Below are positions 119 to 50,170 of a stretch of DNA of 50,356 bases, one piece after another. The notes beneath the pieces are model-generated. The model was given only the letters and a program-made list of their open reading frames with translations, was not told the DNA's origin and did not search any database. Every line of letters begins with the position of its first letter. The first letter of the stretch is position 1. Source of the stretch: a virus (lineage: Duplodnaviria > Caudoviricetes). Location: IMG/VR virus record IMGVR_UViG_3300027861_000043, positions 1 through 50,356 of that record. One strand, given 5' to 3'. Position numbers and translations under genes: made by a program.

Positions 119-331
119 ATGCTAATTGCCGGTGGGGAGAATTTAGAAAAAATAAAAATTCTAATCTCCCTTGCACATATCAAAAGTAATGAAATGAATA
201 ATGCCCTCATTGGTTATTACTGCCTTGGTGTGCGAGTGAAAATCGATAAGAGCAATTTCAAAAGATACCGAAAAAAATTAGAATCGGTGAACGACAAGGT
301 TAATCAATTGAAGGAATTAGACAATGAATAA
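119..331 (+). CDS. hypothetical protein (start uncertain)
   Basis: 70-aa ORF whose end overlaps the terS start; C-terminal half looks coiled-coil. Confidence 0.35.
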   Translation: MLIAGGENLEKIKILISLAHIKSNEMNNALIGYYCLGVRVKIDKSNFKRYRKKLESVNDKVNQLKELDNE

Positions 332-881
332 ACCGCCAATCCCACCAGTGCCATCCATACCGAAAAGAGGTGACGGACGAGGGAATAAACCAAGAGGTAA
401 AGGTAAGAAAGTTTCTCAAACTGAGCTGATGGCCTATCTTGGCGTTGCTGATAATTCAATTAAGAAATGGGTGAAACTCGGACTACCGCGACGAAAGGAA
501 AAGAACAGAGTTTATTACGACATCGGCGAAGTAATGAGATGGCGTATAGAGTGGGAAACCGAAGTCCTGAAAGATGAACTGGTTGAAGCTAGTAGAGGCA
601 ACAACGGTGACGCAATGACACCGCTACAAGCCAAACTAAGGAAAGAAGTAGCACAAGCATTAACGGCTGAATTAGACCTCGCAATCAAACGAGAGCAGGT
701 AGCCAACATTGATGACTTAATGGAAGAATTCAGCGAAGCATTAATTGAGGTCCGAGCAAAGTTGGTCAGCATGAGTTCAAGATTGGGCGGCATACTATCT
801 CATCAAGACGAAGAAGGTGTTGCTAAAATTTTAGATGGTGAAGTTTCCGATATGTTAGAGGCGTTGTCAGATTATGAATGA
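324..881 (+). CDS. terS: terminase small subunit (Nu1-like winged HTH)
   Basis: HTH segment VSQTELMAYLGVADNSIKKWVKLGLP..YDIGEVMRW, coiled coil AELDLA..EQV, immediately upstream of TerL. Confidence 0.9.
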   Translation: MNKPPIPPVPSIPKRGDGRGNKPRGKGKKVSQTELMAYLGVADNSIKKWVKLGLPRRKEKNRVYYDIGEVMRWRIEWETEVLKDELVEASRGNNGDAMTPLQAKLRKEVAQALTAELDLAIKREQVANIDDLMEEFSEALIEVRAKLVSMSSRLGGILSHQDEEGVAKILDGEVSDMLEALSDYE

Positions 882-2850
882 AGTAAGTGTGCTTGACACA
901 TCAAAAGAAGCAAAGAAAAAAATAGGCGCTATGATACGAGACATCATGAAAAAATGTCTATCACCACCACCTAAGTTAAATTTAGTTGAGTGGTCTGACA
1001 CGTTCAGATATCTCCCTGATAACTCTGCTGAAGCCGGTCGATGGAAAACCGACAGAGTAGAAGCTGCTCGTCAACCAATGCTCTCAGTGAGCGACCCTGA
1101 AGCACAGGAAGTAACAGTCATGAGTTGCATCCAATTTATGAAAACTGAGTTGATGCTGAACACAGCTTTATTTTATATGCACCAAGAACCATCACCAATA
1201 ATGTATGTCGCTCCAAAGTTAGAAACTGCTGCTGCTTGGTCAAAAGAACGACTGGTTAAATCTGTTCATGCGACTCCGGTCATCTCAGATATTTTTTCTC
1301 ACAACCGGAGAGGTGAAGGTAATACTATCACTCAAAAACAATTTGCCGGTGGACAGATTTCAATTGTGTCTGCTCGAAACCCGACTGACCTCGCAATGAG
1401 AGCGTGTCGAATAATGTTGTTCGATGAGTGCGACAAGTACCCGATTAATGTTGGTGCAGGAGAAGCAGGAAGCGGTGGTGAAGGAGACCCGATTACAGTT
1501 GCTTGGGGTCGTGCTACCACCTATGGTAAACGCGCTAAAAAAATCACAGCTTGCAGTCCTACGGTGGATGGTAAAAGTCGAATACAGCAGGAATATAATA
1601 ACTCAAATATGAGCGTTTATATTCAGCCTTGCCCTCATTGTAATCATAAGAAAGTTTTAACGTGGGTGGACGTATTAATCCCTCGTGACGAAAAGAAAAA
1701 CTTCATTCATAAAGACGCTGCAATTTGCTGTTCTGAATGCGGTGTATTGTGGACCGAAAGTGACCGACATAAATCAATCAGAAATGGTTATTGGGAAGCA
1801 ACGAAACCGGAGGTAACTTGGCATCATGGATATAAGGTTTCTTCGTTAGCATCTCCGTTCACACCCATTGCTGTTTTAGCGAAAGAATTTTCTGACGCTC
1901 AGAATAATCCTGAGAAATTAAAAGCGTTTTATAATACCCGAATGGCTGAAGTTTGGAGGGAGGTTGGTGAACAACCAGATTGGGAAAGACTATATGAACG
2001 ACGAGAGAATTTTGACCCGAAAGTTATACCGGATGGTGGGCTATTAATTACGTGCGGAATTGATGTTCAGAAAGACTTCATGTATTACGAAATTATGGCA
2101 TGGGGAAGGAAGAAGGAAAATTGGTCATTAGCGATTGGGACCATCGACGGAAATATTGAGGAAGAAGAAACCAAAGAACGATTGGCAGAATTCCTTGATA
2201 AATTATTAGTTAATACCAACGGTGTTAATGTGCCAATTATGAAGACTTGCATTGACTCCGGTTATAACACGAATGAGGTGTACAGTTTTTGTAGACAGTA
2301 TGGTTCTGCGACTGTTGTACCGGTAAAAGGTGAGGATAATTTAATGACACCTATCGGTACACCAACACTGGTTGATGTTACCGTATCAGGTAAGCGATTA
2401 TCGCGTGGAATGCAGCTATGGAAAGTTGGTTCTAGCGTGATTAAAGAGCAGATTTATCGATGGTTAAATGCTAAGAAACCAACCGACGAAGACCTGAAAA
2501 ATGGACGCACTTACCCCACTGGATATTGCCATTATCCACAATGGGATGAGGAATATTTCAAGCAATTAACAGCAGAAGTTTATACAAAAAAGACAGATAA
2601 TCGTGGATTTTTTAAATTTATTTGGGAAAAACTTAGAAAAGATAACCATTTTCTTGATTGTAGGGTGTACAACAGAGCTGCAAGTGCTATGCTTCAGATT
2701 GACCGGATGACTGAGGCAAATTGGGTTGAGTTGGAGGAAACTTATTCAGCTAACACTACCACTCCTGAGAAAGAAACAGTGAGAGAAGTCAGACCTGCCG
2801 GTAGGCAGAATATCCGTAAGAAAAGAACCTCAAATTGGATTAAACGATAA
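874..2850 (+). CDS. terL: terminase large subunit (lambda gpA family)
   Basis: Walker A-like SCIQFMKTE, Walker B MLFDECD, GDP..A..R, SPT, CPHC/CSEC zinc site, nuclease GIDVQ, IDSG, DNHFLDCRVY. Confidence 0.95.
   Translation: MNEVSVLDTSKEAKKKIGAMIRDIMKKCLSPPPKLNLVEWSDTFRYLPDNSAEAGRWKTDRVEAARQPMLSVSDPEAQEVTVMSCIQFMKTELMLNTALFYMHQEPSPIMYVAPKLETAAAWSKERLVKSVHATPVISDIFSHNRRGEGNTITQKQFAGGQISIVSARNPTDLAMRACRIMLFDECDKYPINVGAGEAGSGGEGDPITVAWGRATTYGKRAKKITACSPTVDGKSRIQQEYNNSNMSVYIQPCPHCNHKKVLTWVDVLIPRDEKKNFIHKDAAICCSECGVLWTESDRHKSIRNGYWEATKPEVTWHHGYKVSSLASPFTPIAVLAKEFSDAQNNPEKLKAFYNTRMAEVWREVGEQPDWERLYERRENFDPKVIPDGGLLITCGIDVQKDFMYYEIMAWGRKKENWSLAIGTIDGNIEEEETKERLAEFLDKLLVNTNGVNVPIMKTCIDSGYNTNEVYSFCRQYGSATVVPVKGEDNLMTPIGTPTLVDVTVSGKRLSRGMQLWKVGSSVIKEQIYRWLNAKKPTDEDLKNGRTYPTGYCHYPQWDEEYFKQLTAEVYTKKTDNRGFFKFIWEKLRKDNHFLDCRVYNRAASAMLQIDRMTEANWVELEETYSANTTTPEKETVREVRPAGRQNIRKKRTSNWIKR
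1025..1063 (+). repeat. 39-bp exact direct repeat, copy 1 (copy 2 at 38406-38444)
   Basis: CTGCTGAAGCCGGTCGATGGAAAACCGACAGAGTAGAAG in both places; both encode AEAGRWKTDRVE. Confidence 0.95.
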
Positions 2851-3044
2851 TGGCAACCAGACTAGAACTTGAAGAACTTAAATCAGCCTATGCTCGCGGT
2901 GTTTTGAAAGTACGTGAAGGCGATACATGGGTTGAATACAATTCAATGAAGGATATAAGAACTGCAATTTCCGACATTGAAAAAGAGCTATCTAATTCAG
3001 TGCCGAAAGGTAGTCGATTTGTTACCACCTCTAAAGGATATTAA
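2850..3044 (+). CDS. head-tail joining protein (gpW-like)
   Basis: 64 aa between TerL and portal; G..KV..GD..VEY.S..D pattern. Confidence 0.85.
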   Translation: MATRLELEELKSAYARGVLKVREGDTWVEYNSMKDIRTAISDIEKELSNSVPKGSRFVTTSKGY

Positions 3045-3046
3045 TC

Positions 3047-4546
3047 ATGAAAAATCCATTAGATGCTGTCATTAATTTCTTCTCCCCGCAAGCCGGTTTG
3101 ATTCGAGCTAAATCAAGAATGCAATTAGAAAATGCAGAGAGAAGCTATGACATCGCAAGTAAGAGCCGAAGAAACTCAGGTTGGTTTAGACCGGAAACTT
3201 CAGGCGCACAGGAGGCTTCCACAGCGTTCCGATTAGCAGCCAACACAGGACACGAATTAGTTAGAAATAATCCACTAGCCAAGCGAGCAAGAAACGTATG
3301 GGCGAGTAATGTTGTGGGTGGCGGTATTCAGTTGGAAGCAACTGGAATTTCTGATGCTAAATCGAAAAAGTTTAATGAAGCATGGGATGAATGGGCTGAA
3401 TCAACGGACATCGATTTTGAAGGTCATCATACGCTTTATGGGCTTCAGGATTTGTGGATGAAGACGGTTGTTGAAACCGGTGGTGTTTTCATTAGAAATC
3501 ACGTTAATAAAAGTAAGAAATTCCCGCTTCAATTACAGACCATTGAGCAGACATTTTTAGACAACTCTAAGAATGGAATAACAGAGAACGGAACACTGAT
3601 TGACGGTATCGAATATGATGCTCAAGGGCAGGTTCGAGGTTACTGGTTAAAATCCGAAGAAACTCACACGAAATTAGGTAAACCACCTAAGTCTAAATTC
3701 CACAAATCTTCTAAGATGATTCACATTTTTAGAAAAGACCGAGCAGGACAGCATTTAGGTATTACTTGGTTTCATGCAGTCGCTACTACGCTAAGAAATT
3801 ATAATACTTATCAAGATGCAAAATTGATGCAACAACAGATTGCGGCGTGTTTCGCATTGATTGTTGAAGAAGCTGAAACAGGGATGGGAGCGAATACCAC
3901 ATCAAGTGATTTACCCGACGAGATTCAACCGGCGATGGTTGAATATGTTAAGGCCGGTCAGAAAGTAACAACGGTAACTCCCCCTAAAGCTGACAACAGT
4001 AATAATTTTGATATCGCTATTAAAAGGGATATCGCTTCAGGATTAGATTTGACTTACGAGCAGTTGACAGGTGATTACTCGCTTGTCAATTTTGCATCAG
4101 GTCGAATGGGTAAATCAGAATTCTTCAACCAGTTAGATAATGTTCAGAAGAATTTAATGAAACCGGCGCTCGATAAGATTTTCCGATGGTTCTTAGATTT
4201 ATATGGAATCGGTAATGGAGTCAATGGCACATTCAAAGCTGACTGGACATTCCCACCAAGAGCTGCGGTAAATCCCCAAGAAGAATTCGATGTACTGATG
4301 AGCAAAGTTCGTCACGGAATGATGTCACCTACTAAGGCGGCTAAGATTCTCGGTGAGCGATTACCTCATATTATTGAGCAATGGAAAAAGGATAAGAAAT
4401 TATTCGGTGAGCTTCCATTCGACATTGACCCTTCTAAATTTGCTTCGACAGGAAATCAATTAGATGATAATGATGCAGCGAGTGGAAATAAAAAAGAAGA
4501 TTCTAAGAAAGAAGAAACCAAACCTAAAAAGAAAGAGGAAGAATAA
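3047..4546 (+). CDS. portal protein, lambda family
   Basis: LVRNNP, VVG.GI, GIEYD..G...GYW, IH.F...RAGQ..G, YEQLTGDYS.VNFASGR motifs. Confidence 0.95.
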   Translation: MKNPLDAVINFFSPQAGLIRAKSRMQLENAERSYDIASKSRRNSGWFRPETSGAQEASTAFRLAANTGHELVRNNPLAKRARNVWASNVVGGGIQLEATGISDAKSKKFNEAWDEWAESTDIDFEGHHTLYGLQDLWMKTVVETGGVFIRNHVNKSKKFPLQLQTIEQTFLDNSKNGITENGTLIDGIEYDAQGQVRGYWLKSEETHTKLGKPPKSKFHKSSKMIHIFRKDRAGQHLGITWFHAVATTLRNYNTYQDAKLMQQQIAACFALIVEEAETGMGANTTSSDLPDEIQPAMVEYVKAGQKVTTVTPPKADNSNNFDIAIKRDIASGLDLTYEQLTGDYSLVNFASGRMGKSEFFNQLDNVQKNLMKPALDKIFRWFLDLYGIGNGVNGTFKADWTFPPRAAVNPQEEFDVLMSKVRHGMMSPTKAAKILGERLPHIIEQWKKDKKLFGELPFDIDPSKFASTGNQLDDNDAASGNKKEDSKKEETKPKKKEEE

Positions 4547-4547
4547 T

Positions 4548-4976
4548 ATGAGTCGTGCGAAGTATGAGATACGAGGAACAGACAAGCATGGTTCAGGAGC
4601 CTATGGTGCATCAAGAGGTTCGAGAACACATAAAGGTGTAGATTTAATCACACTCAAAGACGAAATGATAGGTTCGTTCTGTTGTGGGGTAGTTACAAAA
4701 ATAGGCTATCCATATAATCCGATTAAACACCCTAATAAGGGTCATTTCCGATATGTTCAGGTGACAGATGTAGATGGGATAGCTGTACGTTCTTTTTATC
4801 TGAATCCACTAGTGGAAGTTGGTGATTTAGTGGAAGTTGGGAGTATAATAGGTCAAAGTCAAGATTTACTTGAAGTTTACGAAGGGATGACGCAACATAT
4901 TCATGTTGAAATAAAAAAGCAGGGTGAGTTTTTAAACCCTGTTGAATATTTGAGAAATAAACAATTTATCAATTAA
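4548..4976 (+). CDS. M23-family zinc peptidase (LECT2-like), probable endolysin
   Basis: HKGVD (HxxxD), HIH (HxH), NP..YL C-terminus; start moved from 4464 to ATG 4548 (GAGGA RBS, follows portal stop); heads the lysis cassette. Confidence 0.85.
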   Translation: MSRAKYEIRGTDKHGSGAYGASRGSRTHKGVDLITLKDEMIGSFCCGVVTKIGYPYNPIKHPNKGHFRYVQVTDVDGIAVRSFYLNPLVEVGDLVEVGSIIGQSQDLLEVYEGMTQHIHVEIKKQGEFLNPVEYLRNKQFIN

Positions 4977-4992
4977 CCGTTAGGAGAATATA

Positions 4993-5094
4993 ATGTTTCA
5001 TAAAATTGCAGGTGGAAACGGTAAGACTAAACCACCTAAAAAAACCGATTCAGCTAAAAACGTGAAGAAAACTAAAAAAACTTCACGAAAATAA
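4993..5094 (+). CDS. 33-aa basic peptide (not in ORF track)
   Basis: AGGAG RBS at 4982-4986; MFHKIAGGNGKTKPPKKTDSAKNVKKTKKTSRK; fills the gap between endolysin and membrane protein genes. Confidence 0.7.
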   Translation: MFHKIAGGNGKTKPPKKTDSAKNVKKTKKTSRK

Positions 5095-5103
5095 TCTCAA
5101 GTT

Positions 5104-5562
5104 ATGATTACAGCAATACTTATAACTTTAATTGGGGTATTATGTTTCACTAGAAGTAGTGAGAACAAGTATTCAATCATGGTTTTTGCCTCACTATGTT
5201 GGGTTTTTCAAGTCATTGGAAAATACATACCTGCTGAACATGGGGCATTTTATTATTTAGGTGCTGGAATAACAGATGTTTTAATAATTAAACTCTTGTG
5301 TAAAGTAAGGAAAGTAACACAATTAATTATAGACATACAAACAATATCCTTAATGTTCGTTTTTATCAATCTAATCGGATGGGTAATTTTTGAAGAAGGA
5401 TATAAATCAACACTTTATGATGCGGCCTGTAGTTCGCTATTTATAGTAACGATATTTGTTATATTAGATAAGGGAAGGAAAAATGAATTGGGAATCACTT
5501 CAGATGATTGCGGTGGGAATTTCTTTCGTCGCAGCAATCATTCAGGCAATTTTGGGCTGTAG
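5104..5562 (+). CDS. multi-pass (about 5 TM) membrane protein in lysis cassette
   Basis: about five hydrophobic segments, polar C-terminal tail. Confidence 0.75.
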   Translation: MITAILITLIGVLCFTRSSENKYSIMVFASLCWVFQVIGKYIPAEHGAFYYLGAGITDVLIIKLLCKVRKVTQLIIDIQTISLMFVFINLIGWVIFEEGYKSTLYDAACSSLFIVTIFVILDKGRKNELGITSDDCGGNFFRRSNHSGNFGL

Positions 5563-5588
5563 AAAAAACAAAATTAGGAGAGAATACG

Positions 5589-5852
5589 ATGAACTCATTG
5601 AAGCAAGTCGCAACAAACCTATTGCAAGAACCGAAAATAGCAGCAGCGGCGGCGACTAGTGTCGCAACAGCAGGTACAGGAGTTGCAACAGAATTAGCAT
5701 GGATTCCAGCAAATATAGGATGGGTGGCAAGCTTAATTGGAGCTATTGCAACAATAATTATTGTGACTCTATCAATTAAGAAGCACAGGTTAGAATATCG
5801 ATTGCTTAAAAATCGTTTAAAAATGCAAGAAAAACAACTTTTAGATGAGTAA
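5589..5852 (+). CDS. holin-like membrane protein
   Basis: AGGAG RBS at 5576-5580 favours ATG 5589; 1-2 TM segments then charged C-tail. Confidence 0.6.
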   Translation: MNSLKQVATNLLQEPKIAAAAATSVATAGTGVATELAWIPANIGWVASLIGAIATIIIVTLSIKKHRLEYRLLKNRLKMQEKQLLDE

Positions 5853-6090
5853 TATGAAAACTTCAATGCATATTAAATTTAAACAATATAGAGTGATATA
5901 TGTTGTTGTTACAGTGTTTTTCCTTTGGTTAGGGTATGATGCTTGGGAGTGGTTTAAAACTAATTCTGGTGGATTATCTCAGGCAGCCGCCGCAGGATTC
6001 ATATCGATTTACTTAGCAGTAATTGGCGCACTGAAATACATTCTTGAAAACCTACGTCAAGACAGTGAACATGATAAGGAAGACTTGTGA
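5845..6090 (+). CDS. holin-like 2-TM protein
   Basis: two TM segments, charged C-tail, directly upstream of spanins. Confidence 0.6.
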   Translation: MSNMKTSMHIKFKQYRVIYVVVTVFFLWLGYDAWEWFKTNSGGLSQAAAAGFISIYLAVIGALKYILENLRQDSEHDKEDL

Positions 6091-6569
6091 TAAGTACTAT
6101 TTTAGAATTTCTAGGGTTGGTTAAAAAGCTTTTTACCGGAGATTATGCCAAATATGGTGTTTATGCAGTTTTTATAATGTCCCTTTTAATAGGGGTGTGG
6201 TGGGTAACAGATAAATATGGCGATATGAAAGCTTTAGCAGTAGAACAAAAGGCACTTATCAATGTGCTGACAACTTCTAATGTTGAAGCGCAATTAGCAT
6301 TATCGAAAGTCATCGAAGAAAGAGATAGTCAGCGTAAATCGTATGATACCGCTCTGGCTAATCGTTCAGTTTTAGAATCAAGACTTGCATCTACAGTGAA
6401 GGAGAAAGACGATGCCCTTAAAGTATTTGAAAAAGAGTGTGGGCGCATCGAACGGCTCATGCAAAAGAAAGCGAGTCTTATTGTTCGCTATGCTAATCGT
6501 GCTACTAACAGGTTGCATGACGACTTCAGAGAAGCCACGCGAAGTGATTCGGACAGTGACAGTAACTGA
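6087..6569 (+). CDS. inner-membrane spanin (Rz-like)
   Basis: N-terminal TM then long coiled coil; overlaps a lipoprotein gene in another frame. Confidence 0.8.
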   Translation: MISTILEFLGLVKKLFTGDYAKYGVYAVFIMSLLIGVWWVTDKYGDMKALAVEQKALINVLTTSNVEAQLALSKVIEERDSQRKSYDTALANRSVLESRLASTVKEKDDALKVFEKECGRIERLMQKKASLIVRYANRATNRLHDDFREATRSDSDSDSN

Positions 6570-6795
6570 GAAGCAAGTCATTGTATGTCCTGATGCTCCT
6601 GAGTTAGTTTCTCCTGTATGGAAAGAAGTCATATTGGTGGTTGCTACTGCTGAAGATGGAATCAAGATATTCGGGCTTACTGAATCTCAATACAGAAATT
6701 TATCCATTAATACGCAGAATTCTTTAAAATCCATCAAAGATAGAAATGCAGTAATTGCATATTACCGTCAATGTATGGCTGACCATAACAAATGA
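6412..6795 (+). CDS. outer-membrane spanin (Rz1-like lipoprotein)
   Basis: basic n-region, hydrophobic h-region, lipobox LLTGC; CPDAP; C-terminal YYRQC; overlaps i-spanin. Confidence 0.8.
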   Translation: MPLKYLKKSVGASNGSCKRKRVLLFAMLIVLLTGCMTTSEKPREVIRTVTVTEKQVIVCPDAPELVSPVWKEVILVVATAEDGIKIFGLTESQYRNLSINTQNSLKSIKDRNAVIAYYRQCMADHNK

Positions 6796-7700: not shown

Positions 7701-7702
7701 AA

Positions 7703-12399: not shown

Positions 12400-12400
12400 T

Positions 12401-12736: not shown

Positions 12737-12739
12737 AAA

Positions 12740-37809: not shown

Positions 37810-37833
37810 TATTCACCCCTGTTATTTTAAGAA

Positions 37834-38221: not shown

Positions 38222-38226
38222 AATTA

Positions 38227-38254
38227 ATCATACACTAAATAAAAATAATTTCAA
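38227..38254 (-). promoter_or_regulatory. leftward sigma70-like promoter
   Basis: TTGAAA-N16-TATGAT on minus strand. Confidence 0.6.
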
Positions 38255-38261
38255 ATATTAT

Positions 38262-38289
38262 TTTACATTCTTTGAAAATCATGTATGAT
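38262..38289 (+). promoter_or_regulatory. rightward sigma70-like promoter
   Basis: TTTACA-N16-TATGAT. Confidence 0.6.
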
Positions 38290-38338
38290 GCACACTCTCA
38301 CAACGAGAAACTAAACAATCCAATATGAGGAAAACATT

Positions 38339-39142: not shown

Positions 39143-39143
39143 G

Positions 39144-40277: not shown

Positions 40278-40280
40278 AAA

Positions 40281-41569: not shown

Positions 41570-41808
41570 CTAAAAAATCAGAAATAAAAAAGCGTTTGTT
41601 TGCTTACGAAGATAGGAATGCTGTTCACGTAGCAATGGTTAAACGTCAAAAGAAATTACAAGCACTGGTTGATATTCACGGAATCGAAAACGTGTGTCTT
41701 GCCGGTGGCTATGCTGAATCGACTTTGAGTCAGTACTTAAGAATGTCATCACCTAATATCGGAAAAGAAAATCTGGATAAAGCTATTCATATTTTGAAAG
41801 GATTATAA
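41566..41808 (+). CDS. small HTH-like DNA-binding protein
   Basis: GIENVCLAGGYAESTLSQYL. Confidence 0.6.
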   Translation: MTKKSEIKKRLFAYEDRNAVHVAMVKRQKKLQALVDIHGIENVCLAGGYAESTLSQYLRMSSPNIGKENLDKAIHILKGL

Positions 41809-41838
41809 TAATAATTTCCAACATTAGGGGATGCAATT

Positions 41839-44292
41839 ATGCAGTATGATTTAGAGCAAGTCAGGACTCACCTCGCGTTGTTATCAGGTGAAGAAAACTC
41901 ATTAGAAACCTTTCAACATTATTTTGACCCTGACGATTTACCCAAGCGAAAAGGTTTAGCAACTCATTTTACGAATCGGCTGAATGAAAGCCTTGATTAC
42001 CTTCTTGAGATGCAAAAACATCTTTGCGGTATTTATGTGACTGTCAATAAAACAGACGGTAAAGGCAGGAAAGAAAAAAACGTCATCGGCTATCGTAACT
42101 TTTTTGTTGATTATGATGATAGTACTGAGCCATCGTGGACAATACCCCCTACCTGTACGACTAAACGTGGACCGAGAAATGGTCATGGGTTCTTTCACGT
42201 TAAAGGGGAGTGCAGCAAGGAGGACTGGATTAGAGTACAGAAACATTTAATTATGTTCTACAAAACGGACCCTGTAATGACTGACCCACCTCGCGTGATT
42301 CGTGTAGCAGGGTTCTTACATTTAAAAGATTCTAAAAACCCCCAAATGTACCGGCTTGATATCATCAATAAAGATGTCTCCTATACTGTCGATGAAATGA
42401 TTGCTTCTATGCCTCTCAATGAGGCGCAACAGGAAGCCCTTGACGATTGGGTTAATCAGGAGTCGAGAGTGGACACAGGGACCGGATATGAAGCTAATGC
42501 TGCCCATAGTGTTAGGCTACTCAATTGGGCTAAGATTCAAGCGCCCGTAGCTGTCCGTGGAACCGGCTCTAAAACAGTCCTTGGTGTTGCAGGGTGGGCG
42601 CATGATTTAGGTATTCCCTTTGACGAAACTCAACAAGTCCTATGGGAACACTATAACCCTCGCTGTGAGCCTCCGTGGTCTGATGAACCCCATGAGAAGA
42701 CAGATTTCTTTGAGACTGTTAAACGGGCCTATACAGGCGCTCATAGTGCGGCAGGTTGTCGAACATTCAAACACGCTGTTCAACAGCGCAAGCTACCCCC
42801 TCGGACTGATGGGTGGACTGCACAACCTGAGATTCTTAGTTCTGATTCTCCTGACATCGATACGAGCGAACGCGACTATGGTCGAATGAGTAAAGATGAA
42901 GCTGTTAATGCTAAGAAAATGTTAGACGCTAAGACACCGGAGATGGAAGTTGCTATCATGTTCGATGGTTACGAATACAATGGTCGAGAAATCTATCGTG
43001 AGGATAAAATGTATTACCGGTATAACGGTAAAACTTATGAGTATGTTTCCGATGATATTATCAAAGCGGAAATTCAAAAGTTCTGGTATAAGGATAAACC
43101 GTCGAGTGGGAAAATTAACGGCGTTATTGAGTCTCATAAAAACCTAGTAACTCGTAGTGGATTGGCTAACGGTACATGGCTCAATCGAAAAGATTCTGAT
43201 GGTTCAAACTATTCAGTTTTTAATAATGGCATCGTTGACCTGTCACTTGAAAAACCAATTGTCATTCCTCATTCGTGGGCTTACTTTTCGTTTGCTAGTA
43301 AATCGTATGACTATGACCCCGAAGCTAAATGTCCTGTGTTCACACGTACAATAAATGATATGTTTGAGCATGACCCCGATAATACAGTTCTACTTTTAGA
43401 ATTCATCGGCTTGTTACTCACTCATGTTTTAAAATGGCAAAAATTCTTATTCTTAAAAGGTGTTCCTCGCGGCGGTAAGGGAGTCATAACCAATCTCATT
43501 CGTAAGTTAGTCGGTGAAGAAAACTGTGCTAACCCATCGCTTCAGGATATTGTTAAAGCGCCTATTCTTCATTCATTATCGACTAAATCAGTAGCATTCT
43601 GTGATGACGTTCGCTCACTACCAATGGGTATTCGAGATACCGTATTATCCAAACTGCTTCAGCTTACCGGTTGTGATGCTCAGACATTCGATGTTAAATT
43701 CAAGGGCGCTCAAACGTGCGTTATACCGGCGCGATATGTGATGAGTTCTAATGAGATTCCAGACTTCATTGATGCCTCTGGTGCTTTGCTTGCTAGAATG
43801 CTGCTAATCACGTTCGAGAAGTCCTACAGAGGTCGAGAAAACCTTACATTGGGCGATGACCTTGCTGCTGAACTATCTGGTATCTGTAACCTCGCTACGG
43901 CTGCTTATCGTGCTGCTGATAAACGTGGTCGATTTACTGAACCTGAGTCTAGTAAGATTGAAAAAGAAATTATGCGTACTGAGTTCTTCCCCCTTTCTAG
44001 TTTCGTTACTGACAATTGTGACCTCGAAGATGATAGCTTGGTGTCAGTAACGGACCTCTATAAATCTTATCTGGTTTATGCGTCAACGAATTCCGTTCGT
44101 ATGCCATACACTAAAACGAAATTATGCAAACAGCTTCGTAGTTCTGATTTAGCTTTGCGTATGGTTAGAAAAACGATTGACGGTAAGAAAGAAAACTACT
44201 TAATCGGTATTGAATTAAATCAAGAAGCAAGGGATATTATCAGTCTCGATAATGTTACGAACTTCCCAAACAGGAGAGAAAACAATGGTTAG
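41839..44292 (+). CDS. primase-helicase (RepB-like primase + D5/P4-type SF3 helicase)
   Basis: FVDYD, H.F, D..R.IR..GF.H.K primase motifs; N.RC.PPW; F.NG..DL; Walker A GVPRGGKG, Walker B FCDD, SSN. Confidence 0.9.
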   Translation: MQYDLEQVRTHLALLSGEENSLETFQHYFDPDDLPKRKGLATHFTNRLNESLDYLLEMQKHLCGIYVTVNKTDGKGRKEKNVIGYRNFFVDYDDSTEPSWTIPPTCTTKRGPRNGHGFFHVKGECSKEDWIRVQKHLIMFYKTDPVMTDPPRVIRVAGFLHLKDSKNPQMYRLDIINKDVSYTVDEMIASMPLNEAQQEALDDWVNQESRVDTGTGYEANAAHSVRLLNWAKIQAPVAVRGTGSKTVLGVAGWAHDLGIPFDETQQVLWEHYNPRCEPPWSDEPHEKTDFFETVKRAYTGAHSAAGCRTFKHAVQQRKLPPRTDGWTAQPEILSSDSPDIDTSERDYGRMSKDEAVNAKKMLDAKTPEMEVAIMFDGYEYNGREIYREDKMYYRYNGKTYEYVSDDIIKAEIQKFWYKDKPSSGKINGVIESHKNLVTRSGLANGTWLNRKDSDGSNYSVFNNGIVDLSLEKPIVIPHSWAYFSFASKSYDYDPEAKCPVFTRTINDMFEHDPDNTVLLLEFIGLLLTHVLKWQKFLFLKGVPRGGKGVITNLIRKLVGEENCANPSLQDIVKAPILHSLSTKSVAFCDDVRSLPMGIRDTVLSKLLQLTGCDAQTFDVKFKGAQTCVIPARYVMSSNEIPDFIDASGALLARMLLITFEKSYRGRENLTLGDDLAAELSGICNLATAAYRAADKRGRFTEPESSKIEKEIMRTEFFPLSSFVTDNCDLEDDSLVSVTDLYKSYLVYASTNSVRMPYTKTKLCKQLRSSDLALRMVRKTIDGKKENYLIGIELNQEARDIISLDNVTNFPNRRENNG

Positions 44293-44512
44293 ATTTATAA
44301 GTAAAATAAACTCAGGAGAGAATGTTAGCGGCATTCAATCTGTGAACATGGACCTCGTTAGACTCGTTGCGCTTGATGAACCAAGTAATACAATAAATAT
44401 TTACTTCAGTGGTGGCGGTCCTGATATGAGTTGGAACTTTGAGACTAGAGATGAAATGTATGAGATGTTTGTGTTGATGACGAAATATGTACCCCCTATA
44501 AAAGCGGGGTAG
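44285..44512 (+). CDS. hypothetical protein
   Basis: AGGAG RBS favours the internal ATG (MVRFISK...). Confidence 0.65.
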   Translation: MVRFISKINSGENVSGIQSVNMDLVRLVALDEPSNTINIYFSGGGPDMSWNFETRDEMYEMFVLMTKYVPPIKAG

Positions 44513-44516
44513 TTTT

Positions 44517-44693
44517 CTACTTAATTATCTTCTTGCAATTGGTCCCATCTTTTGTACATGAAAAACAATTTCCTGAAGGGTAACAAATAACATTCTTGTG
44601 ACCCTTTGTGGAAGCAAATGTAACCGGTGTGTACCAAGTCGCAACAGCTAATGCTATTACAGATATTACAGTAAATGGTTTACTTTTCTTCAT
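44517..44693 (-). CDS. 58-aa secreted 4-Cys cationic peptide (not in ORF track)
   Basis: GGAG RBS; MKKSKPFTVISVIALAVATWYTPVTFA|STKGHKNVICYPSGNCFSCTKDGTNCKKIIK. Confidence 0.7.
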   Translation of the reverse strand: MKKSKPFTVISVIALAVATWYTPVTFASTKGHKNVICYPSGNCFSCTKDGTNCKKIIK

Positions 44694-44741
44694 TTTATTT
44701 CTCCAATTTTGCCATCAAAGTCCGGTGATGGCTTCCGGTTG

Positions 44742-44942
44742 TTATTCTTTCTTTTTGATAAAACATACATAGCAACGCTCCTTATACCCGCCATAATCCC
44801 ATTCCCCATTAACTGCTTCGCACCAGTCGTCAAAATAGTCTGGGTGATTATCATCTTCTTTGTTGAACTGATAGAATGTAACAAGATACCACCCATCATT
44901 TTTAGCTCTAACCTCTAAGGCTCTTAGTTTTTCTGAGTTCAT
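44742..44942 (-). CDS. hypothetical protein
   Basis: AGGA RBS favours the MNSEKL start at 44942. Confidence 0.6.
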   Translation of the reverse strand: MNSEKLRALEVRAKNDGWYLVTFYQFNKEDDNHPDYFDDWCEAVNGEWDYGGYKERCYVCFIKKKE

Positions 44943-44949
44943 CAACTCT

Positions 44950-45066
44950 CTATTCCTTATTGTTGGTTGCTTCTTTAACAGCCCATTCCCACAACTCAGA
45001 TTGATTCTGGCCCATATATTCGCTTTCAAATAACTTAATGGCTTTTTTAGCTTGTTGGTATGTCAT
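44950..45066 (-). CDS. 38-aa hypothetical protein (not in ORF track)
   Basis: MTYQQAKKAIKLFESEYMGQNQSELWEWAVKEATNNKE; ATGA-coupled, AGGA RBS. Confidence 0.55.
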   Translation of the reverse strand: MTYQQAKKAIKLFESEYMGQNQSELWEWAVKEATNNKE

Positions 45067-45323
45067 AATCTATTCCTTATTACAATCTCATAACAACTAT
45101 CACAAACATGAACCACATTTTCATCACCAACAGGTTCACCATACAAACTTTCGTATTCAGTCTCCAACTCTTTCTGAGTCACAGTCGATTGAAGTATCTG
45201 GTCGCAACCTTCGCAAGTAAATTCGTGCGATTTCTTTAACCTGTTGATTTCAGCCTTTTCCCATTCTTCAAAATCTCTGTTCGATTCAGCTAACATTCTT
45301 CTGTTACCGTTAAAATAATTCAT
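45063..45323 (-). CDS. small zinc-binding protein
   Basis: CEGC..CDSC; start MNYFNG at 45323 coupled to upstream small ORF. Confidence 0.65.
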   Translation of the reverse strand: MNYFNGNRRMLAESNRDFEEWEKAEINRLKKSHEFTCEGCDQILQSTVTQKELETEYESLYGEPVGDENVVHVCDSCYEIVIRNRL

Positions 45324-45463
45324 GACACTAATACCCCTATGGCTTTCTTCTTTCTGGTTAAGTAAAAATCTAGCATTCGTTGACCTTCGCAAATCGATAC
45401 AGTGTCAATATGAACCATTCGCTTTACGACTTTATTCCATCGCAGGATTCGTAGTTTGTTCAT
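45320..45463 (-). CDS. 47-aa basic hypothetical protein (not in ORF track)
   Basis: MNKLRILRWNKVVKRMVHIDTVSICEGQRMLDFYLTRKKKAIGVLVS; ATGA overlaps at both ends. Confidence 0.55.
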   Translation of the reverse strand: MNKLRILRWNKVVKRMVHIDTVSICEGQRMLDFYLTRKKKAIGVLVS

Positions 45464-45708
45464 ACTGTTATCCTCGTTAATGTTGCATTGTGTTCACTGT
45501 ATATCGGTCCATAATAAACACCTTCAAACCACGGTGAATCCCAATATCTTGCTTGAAGTATTCTGAGTCGAGTAAGTATGTCGATACGTTCAACCATTCG
45601 CTCTAATTCTAGCTTATAATCAAACTGAGCGTGTAAGGTTAATTCGGTGCAAGTTCCTATTTTTATACCACAAACAGAAATCGTTCCTTCTCCTAAGTGC
45701 TTATTCAT
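45460..45708 (-). CDS. hypothetical protein
   Basis: coupled ORF in leftward accessory operon. Confidence 0.6.
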   Translation of the reverse strand: MNKHLGEGTISVCGIKIGTCTELTLHAQFDYKLELERMVERIDILTRLRILQARYWDSPWFEGVYYGPIYSEHNATLTRITV

Positions 45709-45926
45709 CGTCCTGCTCCCATTCCAATATCGGAGAGTGTTACCCCGTAGGGCATCATCTGCAATTCTAATGACTTAAAATGCTTGCTGAATGTTAGGCT
45801 GCGAAGGTATTCAACCGGCTTACGTTTAGTCACAACCACTTCGGCTATACGCTTGTCATCCAAATACACTCGAACGTAACTCTCGTTGCCTGTTACTGCG
45901 TGTGTGCCTGTTACTTTTATACTCAT
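45705..45926 (-). CDS. hypothetical protein
   Basis: AGGAG RBS, TAATG-coupled. Confidence 0.65.
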   Translation of the reverse strand: MSIKVTGTHAVTGNESYVRVYLDDKRIAEVVVTKRKPVEYLRSLTFSKHFKSLELQMMPYGVTLSDIGMGAGR

Positions 45927-46399
45927 TACTGCTTACTCCTACTCTCGTTAATTTCTTCATTGAGTTTGTGATACATTTCATTAAAATTAATGAAATCTCT
46001 ACCTTCAGGGTTGGAAAATCGAATTCCGTATTTAGAATGGTCCACAAGTTCTTTCGCCTTATTTAAAGAGCAACCTAAAATTTCAGGCATATCTTTAGTC
46101 TTCACCCCCCTATCGACTAGCTCTTTAAATAATCTGTAAGTTAGGTGTTTAGCTTTCAAACGATAGAAATTCTTCCATTTAACTGCCTTGCTCCATTTCA
46201 ACTTATAAGTTTTACCATCATTGTTTAAAGATTCAGTACCGCTTTTGATTTGCCTTTTAGTTGTAGTGATATCAGTCTTAATTTTATAAAGTTCAAATTC
46301 AATTTCTTCTTTCTTCGACATCAAACCTTTCAGTTCTTTTTCCTTCGTTTCTTTAAAATCGTCAGTACTCATTACTGCTTACTCCTACTCTCGTTAATT
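45920..46399. repeat. 34-bp exact direct repeats (45920-45953, 46366-46399) flanking gene 45926-46372
   Basis: minus strand AATTAACGAGAGTAGGAGTAAGCAGTAATGAGTA twice; both upstream proteins end INESRSKQ. Confidence 0.95.
45926..46372 (-). CDS. basic protein, coiled coil + possible HTH
   Basis: RGVKTKDMPEILGCSLNKAKELV. Confidence 0.65.
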   Translation of the reverse strand: MSTDDFKETKEKELKGLMSKKEEIEFELYKIKTDITTTKRQIKSGTESLNNDGKTYKLKWSKAVKWKNFYRLKAKHLTYRLFKELVDRGVKTKDMPEILGCSLNKAKELVDHSKYGIRFSNPEGRDFINFNEMYHKLNEEINESRSKQ

Positions 46400-46851
46400 A
46401 ATGTATCGATACACTCAATCATTCCGTCGATGAGGGCTATTTCTCCCTGCTCGACGCTCGCTATCCAGTACCGAACTGAATCGTGCTTACGGCTCAAATC
46501 TCGAAGCTTGAGAGGTATCGAAACACCCCCCGCTTCAGGTGTAGTGAATTGTTCATCAAGAATACCCCTCCTATCTAAGCTGTCGAATATACCCTTTTTA
46601 TTCATGAATTTATCTCCATTATTAAAATCGTGCGATAACCCTGTCCTTAATGCTTTTAATATAACACTTTCAACATCCACTTGTGTTCTTAAATTAAAAT
46701 CTAAACATAGTTTTTTTAAATAATCTTGAGATATCTTGCGTAGCTCGGTGGCTGTGACGTTCGTGCGGCGGGACTTGCCTACCTGATAGCCACGATTGGT
46801 TAAGCATTCAATTAAGCTTTCATCTGATATTAAATTTAATGAGCCGTTCAT
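46372..46851 (-). CDS. hypothetical protein, first gene of leftward accessory operon
   Basis: AAGGA RBS, downstream of consensus promoter. Confidence 0.7.
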   Translation of the reverse strand: MNGSLNLISDESLIECLTNRGYQVGKSRRTNVTATELRKISQDYLKKLCLDFNLRTQVDVESVILKALRTGLSHDFNNGDKFMNKKGIFDSLDRRGILDEQFTTPEAGGVSIPLKLRDLSRKHDSVRYWIASVEQGEIALIDGMIECIDTLINESRSKQ

Positions 46852-46885
46852 GGTTATTTATTTCCTTATTTGTTGGTGTAAGTGG

Positions 46886-46915
46886 ATTATATACAGGTCC
46901 ACTTATTAATGTCAA
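46886..46915 (-). promoter_or_regulatory. consensus sigma70 promoter overlapped by TAAGTGGA boxes
   Basis: TTGACA-N18-TATAAT on minus strand. Confidence 0.75.
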
Positions 46916-46959
46916 CTACTTTAAGTGGACCGTTAGTAATTTTTTGTACAATTTAGGGG

Positions 46960-47445
46960 GAGAGGACAAAAGTTTGGGAAAACGGACAAAAACTTTTGTC
47001 CTCCTTAAGTCTATGATTTATAACAGTTTTTCGGGTTTTTTGAGGTTGAGAGGACAAAAGTTAAAATAAAATATTTAAAATTTGGGGTAATGAAATCAAT
47101 AGCTTAGAGGTGAAAAGGACAAAAGGACACAAAATAAGGCTGTTTTGGGGTGCAGCTCTGTAGCTCCACAGCCACAGCCAGTACTAAGCTACAGTTACTA
47201 TATAAATACTAGTATATCTTTATAATAAGTAGTATATTTTGTGTCCTTTTGTCCTTTTGCCTTGTAAGTCATTGATTTATAAAGCCCAAATTTTAAATAT
47301 TATTTTTGGTTTTTGTCCAAACTTTTGTCCTCTTGCTCTGTAAGTTATTGATTTTACAGGGTAATTCGGGCTTTTTGCCTTAAAGTGCAACTTTTGTCCT
47401 CTTAGAGCAACTTTTGTCCTTTCGACCTCTAAGTCATTGATTTAT
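46960..47445. other. putative replication origin: iterons, IHF boxes, AT-rich core
   Basis: about 12 AGGACAAAAG-like iterons, mostly converging on AT-rich 47195-47240; 24-bp perfect inverted repeat 47113-47136/47235-47258; four exact WATCAAN4TTR sites. Confidence 0.75.
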
Positions 47446-47677
47446 AAGGCCCAAATAAAATATTTTAAATTTGGGTATTTTAAGTGGATTTCAGGGTAAA
47501 TGAGAATTGCTCCATTAAAGGACACATATTTCCACTGGTTGAAGATAAAATGAGATTTGAAAGTAAAAATAAGTGGACTTTGACCTAAAAATAAATTTGA
47601 CAAGTGGATTTTGTTTGTGTTACCGCGTGTGCGCGTTCTATTTATAGAAAGTTTTTAAAAATAAGTGGATTATTTAA

Positions 47678-47705
47678 TTGCTAAGTGGATTATTTATGCT
47701 ATAGT
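47678..47705 (+). promoter_or_regulatory. rightward promoter with extended -10
   Basis: TTGCTA-N16-TATAGT with TGn; TAAGTGGATTATTTA direct repeats at 47662 and 47682. Confidence 0.65.
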
Positions 47706-47740
47706 TACCATATCGCTTAGGAAAACAACGGGAACGAAAA

Positions 47741-47923
47741 ATGAGCAAACTACAAGATATAATTACTAAACTGAATAAGCTTGAAAATGAATTGTGGAAT
47801 GTAACAAACTCTAAATCATTATCAAGGGGACAGAAAGTAATTCAAAGCGAGCGTATTAAATTGAAGATAAGAAAGGTTAAGCGAGTCAGAGACATTGCAC
47901 TAGCTGACTGGTCAGAGGAATAA
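47741..47923 (+). CDS. small basic helical protein
   Basis: GGA RBS; first gene after promoter. Confidence 0.65.
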   Translation: MSKLQDIITKLNKLENELWNVTNSKSLSRGQKVIQSERIKLKIRKVKRVRDIALADWSEE

Positions 47924-47927
47924 GAAA

Positions 47928-48356
47928 ATGATAGTAACTGAGAGAGCTATAGCCATATTTGATAACATGTACAGCGGTACTTGGCGATCTGAGTCTGTAC
48001 CTCTTGGTCAGATGGAAGATTGGCAAGATGAGGTAACTACGCTATATATTGAGAGAGCGCTCAGTGTGTACTTGCAAGAGACAGGTAACAGCTTGCCTGT
48101 TTACCCTGATAGCGATTGTGAGCATGAGCTTGATTGCTATTACTACCACTTGGAAGCTATAGAGAATACAGCTGAAGATTATTTTAAAGATAGATACCCT
48201 GATTTTGTTATCGATAGTAACACGCAGGTTGTCACATTGTGTAACTACAAAGGCGAAGGTGAGTGTATATCTTTACTTGAGCTATCAGAGAGTTTACCTA
48301 TCTACGTGTCAAAACGAGAGAGCTATGACTATAAACTTAGAGGAATAAGAGAATGA
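47928..48356 (+). CDS. acidic hypothetical protein
   Basis: GAGG RBS; D/E/Y-rich; flanked by 18-bp near-identical RBS repeats. Confidence 0.7.
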   Translation: MIVTERAIAIFDNMYSGTWRSESVPLGQMEDWQDEVTTLYIERALSVYLQETGNSLPVYPDSDCEHELDCYYYHLEAIENTAEDYFKDRYPDFVIDSNTQVVTLCNYKGEGECISLLELSESLPIYVSKRESYDYKLRGIRE

Positions 48357-48604
48357 CTAAATCACAATTTAAAAAGGCTTACCGTCAAGCGCGAAAATTA
48401 ATATATGTAAACGGTATGAGTTCTTTGCAGCCTTTACTTGATATTGGATTTACTAAAATTCAAGCGTTGGATTTAATTTTTCCAACTTTAAAAGCTGCAA
48501 ATGTCGGTTATTCGATTTTGATTGAACAACCAACTTTAAAATCAAATCTTAAAAACGGCAAACTATATGTTTATGGCGCGCCTGTAAATTTATTCAACTA
48601 TTAG
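48353..48604 (+). CDS. hypothetical protein
   Basis: GAGG RBS; MTKSQFKKAY..ARK start. Confidence 0.7.
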   Translation: MTKSQFKKAYRQARKLIYVNGMSSLQPLLDIGFTKIQALDLIFPTLKAANVGYSILIEQPTLKSNLKNGKLYVYGAPVNLFNY

Positions 48605-48616
48605 GAATTAAATAAA

Positions 48617-48751
48617 ATGAGCAAATTAATTATGAACAAATTAATCATGAAAAGAAACGCGGCAAATTATAACCCAAAAATGAGCTGGAAAGTGCGCTTA
48701 AATCTCGCTGTTTATTCAGCGCCTAAAAAATCAAACTTAAATTTTAAATAA
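48617..48751 (+). CDS. 44-aa basic peptide (not in ORF track)
   Basis: AGGA RBS; MSKLIMNKLIMKRNAANYNPKMSWKVRLNLAVYSAPKKSNLNFK; 15-bp tandem duplication at the start. Confidence 0.55.
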   Translation: MSKLIMNKLIMKRNAANYNPKMSWKVRLNLAVYSAPKKSNLNFK

Positions 48752-48765
48752 GGAATAAAATTATC

Positions 48766-49245
48766 ATGAATAGATACACCCAGAAAGATTATCAAAACGA
48801 GCTAACCGGAATCAATAAGCGTTTAGCGTGGGATTTATCACTTGAATTTGTTGGTTATGGTGGTCGTTATAATATGACCTATTCAGACCGTTATGTATTG
48901 CTAGATGATGGTGAGTTATCAGATTATGGTTGTATTGAATGCGGTACGCCTCGTGAGGCTTTATTAGGTGCTTATCGTTTGACAAGCGATGCAAAAAGGA
49001 ATAACAAAATAACACGCGAACAGGCTAAACAACTAGCTTATATTTTTGGGGTTGATTTTGATTTAGATTTTTATCAGCATAGATTAGAGGTTTCTGAATT
49101 ACTTTTAAATTTGGCTAAAGCTTCTAAGTATAGAAAGCCTCGAAATGCTAACGGCTCAACCGCTCGTTACTTTTACGAACATTTAAACAAGCGAGTAAAA
49201 GTAAAAATGCACTACAACGTTAAATCATTGAATGACGAGGTTTAA
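48766..49245 (+). CDS. hypothetical protein with YRKP.NANGS.ARYF motif
   Basis: AGGA RBS; two-part protein. Confidence 0.75.
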   Translation: MNRYTQKDYQNELTGINKRLAWDLSLEFVGYGGRYNMTYSDRYVLLDDGELSDYGCIECGTPREALLGAYRLTSDAKRNNKITREQAKQLAYIFGVDFDLDFYQHRLEVSELLLNLAKASKYRKPRNANGSTARYFYEHLNKRVKVKMHYNVKSLNDEV

Positions 49246-49249
49246 AATT

Positions 49250-49756
49250 ATGAAAAAAATCACAAGAGAAGGTAAGACTCAATTTATTTTTAAATTAGTT
49301 GATGAGAACGAGCCACTAAAAAAAGATAAAAGCTTTAAATTTTTTATTAATCATCCAAAGTTGAAAACTAATAAAAGCTATTGTTTAATTGCTGAATATT
49401 TAGATTCTATTGGTATGAATAATGAATCTGAATTCATAAAATCACATCAATATGATACGTTAAAAATCATATTAGATGTGGCTTATAGATGTTGGTTGCC
49501 ATCAGCAAAAACTTATAAATTTAATGAATTATTTAATGATACCAAACACAGTATGAAAGTTAAATTAAAAGAATTTATAACCGAGCAAGGATATATATAT
49601 GGTGATGATTATGAAAAACTCTATTTTGAAATTATCACGCCAAACGGTTCTAAATCTTCATTTTTACATTATAAATATCAACAAATTATCGGCGGTCGTA
49701 AATTATGTAAAATTGATTTAGAATCTTTTAAAAATTCTGGTATTTATCAAAGATAA
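49250..49756 (+). CDS. hypothetical protein
   Basis: GAGG RBS favours ATG 49250; very AT-rich. Confidence 0.7.
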   Translation: MKKITREGKTQFIFKLVDENEPLKKDKSFKFFINHPKLKTNKSYCLIAEYLDSIGMNNESEFIKSHQYDTLKIILDVAYRCWLPSAKTYKFNELFNDTKHSMKVKLKEFITEQGYIYGDDYEKLYFEIITPNGSKSSFLHYKYQQIIGGRKLCKIDLESFKNSGIYQR

Positions 49757-49801
49757 ATAACCCCCGCCACCATTGGCAGAAAATAAAAGGATAAAATTAT
49801 T

Positions 49802-50170
49802 ATGAGCATAGAAAAAGATATTATTATTGAAGATTTTAAAACCGCTTTAATTTGGCAAGATGAAAATCTAGACGAATATCAAGATTGTGAATTGTCATAT
49901 AGTGCAATAGAAAAAATTGAACAAACATGCTGTATATTTTTGGCGTGTGTGTCGATGGATAAGCAAGCAACAATCGAAGCAACAAACCACGATATTGTCG
50001 GACATGATTTAGCATTGCAAATGTTGGGTCATGGGGTTGGATTTTGGGAACAAAAAGAAACTAAAACACTAGATACAATTTTAAATATGTTATTAGATAT
50101 GAAGGCAATCAAACCTTTTCATTTATACTATGATGATGACGATAAGAAATTAGATTGGGATATTGTTTAA
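49802..50170 (+). CDS. acidic protein with GHD..L...GHG.GFW motif
   Basis: AGGA RBS; I recall this motif from phage early-region proteins of unknown function. Confidence 0.75.
   Translation: MSIEKDIIIEDFKTALIWQDENLDEYQDCELSYSAIEKIEQTCCIFLACVSMDKQATIEATNHDIVGHDLALQMLGHGVGFWEQKETKTLDTILNMLLDMKAIKPFHLYYDDDDKKLDWDIV

Follow-up and report, generated by a model that had tools for sequence, protein, structure and literature searches.

The question raised by IMGVR_UViG_3300027861_000043 is whether a whole phage genome can be freed of a five-base word, CCNGG, that in one reading frame is the only spelling of a dipeptide, and what could have brought this about. The record, a complete virus sequence of 50,356 bp (39.1% G+C; completeness rating 100%), was analysed over its full length and is called the window below. 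Among deposited phages (763 matching records), the best match to its large terminase subunit (TerL) was Vibrio phage 1.050.O (63%; recorded host Shewanella), with further matches to Shewanella phage 1/44 (61.5%) and Pseudoalteromonas phage B8b (58.8%); a megablast search of deposited phages with 11.5 kb of the window gave no match. By its sequence, the window would represent an uncultured marine tailed phage whose closest cultured relatives infect Shewanella, and its DNA was detected in seawater or marine metagenome runs only. A preliminary description had reported that its proteins lack Pro-Gly and had ascribed this to selection by a host CCNGG restriction system of the ScrFI/SsoII type. Selection by host Type II restriction has very probably removed every CCNGG from the lineage, and Pro-Gly with it; whether one enzyme or two were responsible is weighed below.

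Word counts were made on the complete sequence and compared with Markov models. CCAGG, CCTGG, CCCGG and CCGGG are each absent from the 50,356 bases, against expectations for CCNGG of 72.5 (order 0), 65.8 (order 1), 80.0 (order 2) and 54.4 (order 3). Both halves of the word are missing (CCWGG, 42.9 expected; CCSGG, 23.0 expected). A ranking by Poisson tail covered every palindromic 4-mer and 6-mer and every 5-mer of the form XYNY'X'; CCNGG took second place in it, GATC alone being more depleted (3 versus 172-189). The shorter word CCGG is present 117 times, and the claim that CCNGG is avoided while CCGG stays common was thus confirmed (0 against 54-80). At the protein level, 61 coding sequences were picked greedily (15,885 residues, 95% of the genome). 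They contain no Pro-Gly, against 40.0 expected from amino-acid composition, as had been claimed. This composition-based expectation is realistic: observed and expected numbers are 36 and 38.3 in L001 and 32 and 41.7 in L002, two cultured relatives of the Shewanella-phage type with deposited genomes, 41 and 36.7 in phage lambda, and 85 and 108.6 pooled over relatives that do not avoid the word.

Pro-Gly is spelled only CCN-GGN, and an in-frame CCNGG can therefore be removed only by an amino-acid change; in the two other reading frames the site can be removed synonymously. The two non-Pro-Gly frames were evaluated with 100 shuffles that preserved every protein sequence and the codon usage of the genome. 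They hold 0 and 0 CCNGG, against 11.7 and 20.2 in the shuffled sequences (31.9 in total). CCNGG is therefore also absent outside the Pro-Gly frame, which marks the DNA word as the target rather than the dipeptide, and the observation of the preliminary description stands. The flanks of CCGG point the same way, as none of the 117 copies carries a 5' C or a 3' G (35.5 expected from flanking-base frequencies); since CCGG is abundant, CCSGG was avoided in itself and not through avoidance of CCGG. These counts bear directly on the proposal that selection acted on the protein or its translation (ribosome stalling at proline motifs, or a host protease) and that the DNA word was lost secondarily. Such selection would account for 0 Pro-Gly against about 40, but it leaves unexplained both the empty non-Pro-Gly frames and the CCGG flanks, and close relatives have normal numbers of Pro-Gly spelled as CCS-GGN only, which is a signature at the DNA level. 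We regard it as highly improbable.

CCGG is itself above expectation in the window (117 versus 61.5-92.8). It lies mainly in the codon phase NCC-GGN (72 versus 33.1 under synonymous shuffling), and its flanks are mainly 5' A (67) and 3' T (65).

Relatives were collected from IMG/VR (28 loci by TerL and six by helicase alignment) and completed with the two deposited genomes. They fall into three states: no avoidance, avoidance of CCWGG only, and freedom from CCNGG. The high-GC relatives show no avoidance, and two of them lie within Marinobacterium chromosomes. A scan of chromosomal contigs gave relatives at 56-57% TerL identity only, in two Marinobacterium genomes and a gammaproteobacterial metagenome-assembled genome; these were considered as pointers to the host of the window and rejected, being members of the non-avoiding high-GC branch. 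Avoidance of CCWGG only is found in nine low-GC relatives including L001 (1 versus 54.4 expected) and L002 (4 versus 47.8). CCSGG is in excess in both (86 versus 30.4 and 101 versus 32.7, respectively), and Pro-Gly is spelled CCS-GGN at 36 of 36 positions in L001 and 30 of 32 in L002. These two phages meet the CCWGG purge by switching proline codons and so retain Pro-Gly. Their CCSGG excess is about threefold in all three frames (36, 22 and 24 versus 9.3, 5.2 and 8.2 in L001; 30, 28 and 35 versus 7.8, 4.6 and 8.2 in L002); codon switching accounts for the Pro-Gly frame but not for the other two.

The window belongs to a clade with the topology (G001,(L008,(window,(L005,(L006,L007))))) and support of 100/99, the members of which are all free of CCNGG, or nearly so, at a divergence reaching down to 66% TerL identity. 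A scan of viral contigs with the helicase as a single protein gave no match; the alignment-based scan then recovered the basal member of the clade, G001 (loci L040-L042), a complete genome of 49,012 bp that was fetched whole. In G001, CCWGG was observed once (47-51 expected), CCSGG 0 times (26-28), CCGG 0 times (61-67) and GGNCC 0 times (65-75), and its proteins contain one Pro-Gly and no Gly-Pro (40.1 expected for each). Pooled over five short CCNGG-free loci, Pro-Gly and Gly-Pro are both absent (29.3 expected for each). CCGG is missing not only from G001 but also from L008 and L016; avoidance of CCWGG and CCGG is therefore enough to explain the absence of CCNGG in these three, which is not so in the window. 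An approximately unbiased (AU) test rejected a single clade of the seven CCNGG-free rows (p = 0.013, for a group that was named after the first tree had been seen). A parallel origin of the CCNGG-free state is thereby suggested for L016, which sits on a long branch. The avoided sets (GATC, CCGG, GGNCC) vary between close relatives. A mirror effect was observed in L001, where GGNCC (4 versus about 84) and Gly-Pro (2 versus 38.3) are reduced beyond the natural scarcity of Gly-Pro, as they are in G001.

This spread over records bears on the proposal of an artefact of sequencing or assembly, such as systematic miscalls where motifs are methylated. GATC and CCWGG are methylation motifs in some bacteria, and they are the two most depleted words here, as such miscalls would have it. 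The same state is nevertheless found in six contigs from other records (L005-L008, L016 and G001), CCWGG avoidance is present in two cultured and deposited phage genomes, the coding density is 95% with long intact open reading frames (ORFs), and the replacements described below are conservative and common to several contigs. In addition, 31-mers sampled from positions 874-10800 were all recovered (share 1.00) in independently built contigs of one seawater run, a recurrence that measures reproducibility from reads and not independence, as this run may be the source sample. An artefact is the least probable of the explanations considered.

The proteins in which replacements could be sought were assigned with Pfam and PHROGs. 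Matches were obtained for the small and large terminase subunits, a lambda-family portal protein and a capsid-protease fusion; a tape-measure protein and tail genes are also encoded. A DNA polymerase (PHROG 1252) and an SF2 helicase lie on the opposite strand, and a DUF2800/PD-(D/E)XK nuclease, an Enc34-type ssDNA-binding protein and a D5-type primase were identified. Aligned with L001 and L002, these proteins gave 11 columns that are Pro-Gly in both relatives, and the window has Pro-Gly in none of them. It has Ala-Gly in five (TerL 54 and 158, tail protein 47, primase 157 and 305) and Pro-Ala, Pro-Gln, Pro-Leu, His-Gly, Asn-Gly and Gln-Gly once each in the other six. As a control, conserved dipeptides beginning with proline or ending with glycine were retained at 197 of 548 positions (Fisher p = 0.0099 against 0 of 11). 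Positions are listed in the table below.

The clearest case is TerL 158-159, where Ala-Gly is also found in L005, L007, L008 and L016. G001 retains Pro-Gly at this site, and the CCAGG that encodes it is the sole CCNGG in 49 kb. This reads as a trade-off in which G001 would tolerate one cuttable site for the sake of the residue pair, while the other lineage gave up the proline. The change from proline to alanine appears in two lineages that the TerL tree separates, and in L016, given its long branch, Ala-Gly is likely to be a parallel change. The gpA protein of lambda, at 25% identity, has Asn-Gly at this site; the conservation of Pro-Gly is therefore limited to this subfamily. A comparison of TerL with solved structures gave no match.

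Table. Positions in the window of the CCNGG-free genome, of the terminase and portal genes and of the residue pairs discussed in the text
Feature	Position	Strand	Basis or state in relatives
Whole phage genome without CCNGG on both strands, with 117 CCGG	1..50356	.	Word counts
Large terminase (GpA ATPase and nuclease domains)	874..2850	+	Pfam; 30 relatives aligned
TerL residues 54-55, Ala-Gly (GCC GGT) in SAEAGRW	1033..1038	+	Pro-Gly in 7 relatives; ancestral state ambiguous
TerL residues 158-159, Ala-Gly (GCC GGT) in QKQF-AG-GQ	1345..1350	+	Pro-Gly in 24 of 25 relatives that permit Pro-Gly
Portal protein (lambda family)	3047..4546	+	Pfam
Portal residues 233-234, Ala-Gly (GCA GGA)	3743..3748	+	Pro-Gly in 19 of 24 relatives that permit Pro-Gly
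Portal residues 295-296, Pro-Ala (CCG GCG)	3929..3934	+	Pro-Gly in L001, L002 and 5 more relatives
Portal residues 410-411, Pro-Gln (CCC CAA)	4274..4279	+	Pro-Gly in L001 and L002
M23 peptidase (ORF 4464-4976) residues 140-141, Glu-Gly	4881..4886	+	Aligned with Pro-Gly of LECT2
Major tail protein homologue residues 47-48, Ala-Gly (GCC GGT)	19980..19985	+	Pro-Gly in L001 and L002; Ala-Gly in G001
DNA polymerase residues 606-607, His-Gly	33472..33477	-	Pro-Gly in L001 and L002
DNA polymerase residues 150-151, Pro-Leu	34840..34845	-	Pro-Gly in L001 and L002
DUF2800/PD-(D/E)XK nuclease residues 21-22, Asn-Gly (CNG)	39204..39209	+	CPG in L001 and L002
Enc34-type ssDNA-binding protein residues 207-208, Gln-Gly	40899..40904	+	Pro-Gly in L001 and L002
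Primase (D5_N/DUF5906) residues 157-158, Ala-Gly (GCA GGG)	42307..42312	+	Pro-Gly in L001 and L002; Ala-Gly in G001
Primase residues 305-306, Ala-Gly (GCA GGT)	42751..42756	+	Pro-Gly in L001 and L002; Ser-Gly in G001

The frame counts and the relatives thus support a purge at the DNA level with forced replacement at conserved Pro-Gly positions, as the preliminary description had proposed. The motifs it cited as altered fared unevenly. Three agree with the comparison: the primase has RVAGF where two of two relatives have RAPGT, the DUF2800 protein has CNG where both have CPG, and the M23 peptidase has VYEG where LECT2, its closest solved homologue, has VYPG. The portal motif QPAM is divided, corresponding to EPGM in seven relatives but to EAGM, ESGM or EKGM in the non-avoiding high-GC relatives. 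Others were not upheld. At TerL SAEAGRW, the 16 non-avoiding high-GC relatives have Ala-Gly (13) or Ser-Gly (3), Pro-Gly being confined to seven of the nine CCWGG-only avoiders; LNAGEHC of the DUF2800 protein has Ala-Gly in relatives too; RPFEGK of the helicase is RVIEGK or RVIDGK in relatives; and the portal KAG is matched by relatives without Pro-Gly. For the spanin-like KASLI, the sole homologue comes from a CCNGG-free phage. Several of the cited family motifs were not real, but the overall conclusion stands, and the strongest replacement, TerL 158-159, was not among the motifs cited.

The nature of the replacements can be set against mutational decay, in which a C5-methyltransferase of the host or the phage would methylate the cytosines of CCNGG and deamination of 5-methylcytosine would erode the site to CTNGG or CCNAG. 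A C-5 cytosine methylase is annotated in L001, so that cytosine methylation is not foreign to this phage group. However, the products of inner-C deamination, CTNGG and CCNAG, are depleted in the window (136 versus 211.6; ratio 0.64), and the commonest change, Pro to Ala (five of 11), replaces the outer C by G, a transversion. No methyltransferase family was matched in the window (40 ORFs, Pfam). Decay alone would neither reach exactly zero in 50 kb nor spare 117 CCGG, and we consider it very unlikely.

Other palindromes are depleted in the window besides GATC, namely TTCGAA (0 versus about 20) and GGCC (16 versus 42-69). A series of six-base palindromes was found 0 times or once against 7-28 expected (TTCGAA, CATATG, GTTAAC, AACGTT, GTATAC, CTGCAG, GCATGC, TGCGCA and GAGCTC). 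GATC is kept in the closest relatives L005, L006 and L007 (85-86% TerL identity), with 13, 15 and 12 copies observed against 20.4, 26.6 and 16.0 expected; GATC was therefore purged much more recently than CCNGG. Of 25 GATC positions in these three relatives, 14 show a synonymous difference in the window and the other 11 an altered amino acid. The low number of Gly-Pro in the window (12 versus 40.0) was considered as a fossil of past GGNCC avoidance. This idea was rejected because Gly-Pro is naturally scarce (13 versus 36.7 in lambda; 44 versus 108.6 in non-avoiding relatives); out-of-frame GGNCC in the window, which is at expectation (13 and 11 versus 10.8 and 13.6 in synonymous shuffles), also counts against it.

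The observed depletion in every frame, its spread across the clade and the replacements are thus best accounted for by host restriction. The pattern matches classic Type II site avoidance, with a palindromic word, other palindromes purged together with it, prophage relatives that do not avoid it and no methyltransferase recognised in the 40 ORFs scanned. A genome without the site is uncuttable whatever its methylation state; in-frame sites would have been lost only through amino-acid change, leaving a proteome without Pro-Gly in which the conserved Pro-Gly positions have mostly become Ala-Gly, one base change (CCN to GCN) being enough. We infer both that restriction enzymes were the selective agent and what they recognised: either one CCNGG enzyme, which is slightly favoured, or two enzymes, one for CCWGG and one for CCSGG. 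Enzymes with sites of this kind are ScrFI, SsoII, Ecl18kI, EcoRII, NciI and BcnI. Separate specificities are seen in the sister lineages that avoid CCWGG alone and in G001, L008 and L016, which avoid CCWGG and CCGG, and these clearly point to separate site pressures among the hosts of this phage group. As for the ScrFI/SsoII-type host system of the preliminary description, the absence of both CCWGG and CCSGG agrees with it, but the single enzyme is one of two readings, as CCWGG-specific and CCSGG-specific enzymes fit equally well. CCNGG is a common Type II site according to a survey (Rusinov et al., 2018; PMC6286503). Another study (PMC8410138) describes weaker site avoidance in temperate phages, and the non-avoiding high-GC relatives, two of them chromosomal, fit this trend.

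Several points weigh against this explanation or limit it. The sequence of the window fits one enzyme or two alike. The conserved-column comparison comprises 11 sites only, with relatives that are 35-63% identical, so that the ancestral state is secure at TerL 158 and portal 233 only, the positions at which many outgroups concur. This DNA was detected in seawater or marine metagenome runs only, and hence no cognate host restriction-modification system is in evidence. Three large ORFs (821, 754 and 492 residues) without a family match could still hide a methyltransferase or a nuclease; the absence of a DNA methyltransferase match applies to the 40 ORFs scanned with Pfam, about 22 ORFs shorter than 110 residues remaining outside the scan. 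LlaMI is an enzyme that cuts CCNGG. Among 401 genomes sampled from the class of a Marinobacterium genome, none gave a match to the LlaMI-type endonuclease family (PF09562, RE_LlaMI), a result that is uninformative because the control genomes were silent too.

The three large ORFs (7670-10135, 10135-12399 and 12740-14218; no Pfam or PHROG family match) are also relevant to self-avoidance, in which a CCNGG nuclease encoded by the phage would degrade host DNA and a site-free phage would be immune. The block that contains them is missing from L001 and L002, which counts in favour of this proposal. No nuclease signature was found in any of the three, though, and G001, which is all but free of CCNGG, has just one of them, the 492-residue ORF, at 29% identity. 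The differences in avoided sites among close relatives also fit changing host enzymes better. A self-imposed purge is accordingly given little credence, and host restriction remains the preferred cause. The block itself (6087-14784, about 8.7 kb) is situated between the portal and M23 genes and the capsid gene, has no counterpart in L001 and L002 and also encodes a 302-residue protein with an SdiA-regulated domain; of its content, only the 492-residue ORF is present in G001.

Two further features of the genome were observed. The small M23-peptidase ORF (4464-4976) overlaps the end of the portal gene; among solved structures its product matches vertebrate LECT2 chains best (E = 1.5e-11), and bacterial SpoIIQ ranks behind them. 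A stretch of 44 bp in terL (1025-1068) recurs at 38406-38449, with 43 of 44 bases identical, within ORF 38339-39142, which encodes a protein of 267 residues of no known function. The repeat is in frame in both genes, so that the peptide AEAGRWKTDRVE is present in both proteins. In TerL this peptide sits in an N-terminal segment conserved across all relatives, and in G001, L001 and L002 it is found in TerL only.

Restriction-site avoidance in virulent double-stranded DNA phages was described, as cited in PMC8410138, by Sharp in 1986, Karlin in 1992 and Rocha in 2001. The window resembles such phages in having short palindromic words of Type II type far below Markov expectation, several at once, and in that its prophage relatives are without avoidance. 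Passages of PMC8410138 frame avoidance as synonymous codon choice, and the text of PMC6286503 does not contain the terms 'amino acid', 'codon' or 'synonymous'. The window differs from these accounts in that one frame has no synonymous exit and a whole dipeptide was lost.

The same effect can be recognised in two better-known phages. Among staphylococcal phages, phage K and the Rosenblumvirus phages lack GGNCC (Sau96I) and GATC (Sau3AI), GGNCC being absent from every Rosenblumvirus phage, according to PMC6346686, whose passages on the missing sites make no mention of an effect on proteins. Over the first 50 kb of the phage K genome we counted 0 GGNCC (32.9 expected) and 0 Gly-Pro (16.9 expected). 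As in the window, a five-base word of the form NN-N-NN and its dipeptide are gone; the word and the dipeptide are the mirror ones, however, and for the staphylococcal phages both hosts and enzymes are known. Lactococcus phage sk1 has three CCNGG (22.0 expected) and one Pro-Gly (11.0 expected). ScrFI, which cuts CCNGG, is carried by the host species of sk1. Here the depleted word is that of the window, but the purge is incomplete and the genome smaller, whereas in the window it is total and extends over the clade.

The complete loss of words of this form is therefore already known, its protein-level effect is seen in phage K and sk1, and the loss of Pro-Gly is an expected by-product of known site deletion in phages. 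Searches of the full-text literature, with subscription journals, older papers and supplements outside their coverage, found no paper on dipeptide loss through site avoidance. The protein consequence thus appears to be under-described in the searchable literature, and the comparative series around the window appears unusually clean. The window represents the limit case, in which the avoided word leaves a dipeptide without any other spelling and a host defence would directly edit protein sequences, conserved motifs in the terminase, portal, primase and nuclease among them. Its relatives serve as internal controls, in which the codon was switched, the dipeptide was lost or a single site was kept where it is most conserved.

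Within this group, lineages have lost Pro-Gly (0 in the window), Gly-Pro (2 of 38 expected in L001) or both (one Pro-Gly and no Gly-Pro in G001). It is a tentative generalization that host restriction enzymes may impose forbidden dipeptides on phage proteomes where a free base in their site separates two codon stems that are each four-fold degenerate (CCNGG for Pro-Gly, GGNCC for Gly-Pro), with this marine phage group as a natural experiment. For annotation and homology work, the recognition of motifs in such proteins should not presume Pro-Gly. The relatives would make the fitness trade-off between escape from restriction and protein function measurable. If the forbidden-dipeptide effect is general and has not been described before, dipeptide gaps could reveal the past and present host defences that a phage has met and serve to gauge the cost of anti-restriction to a protein.

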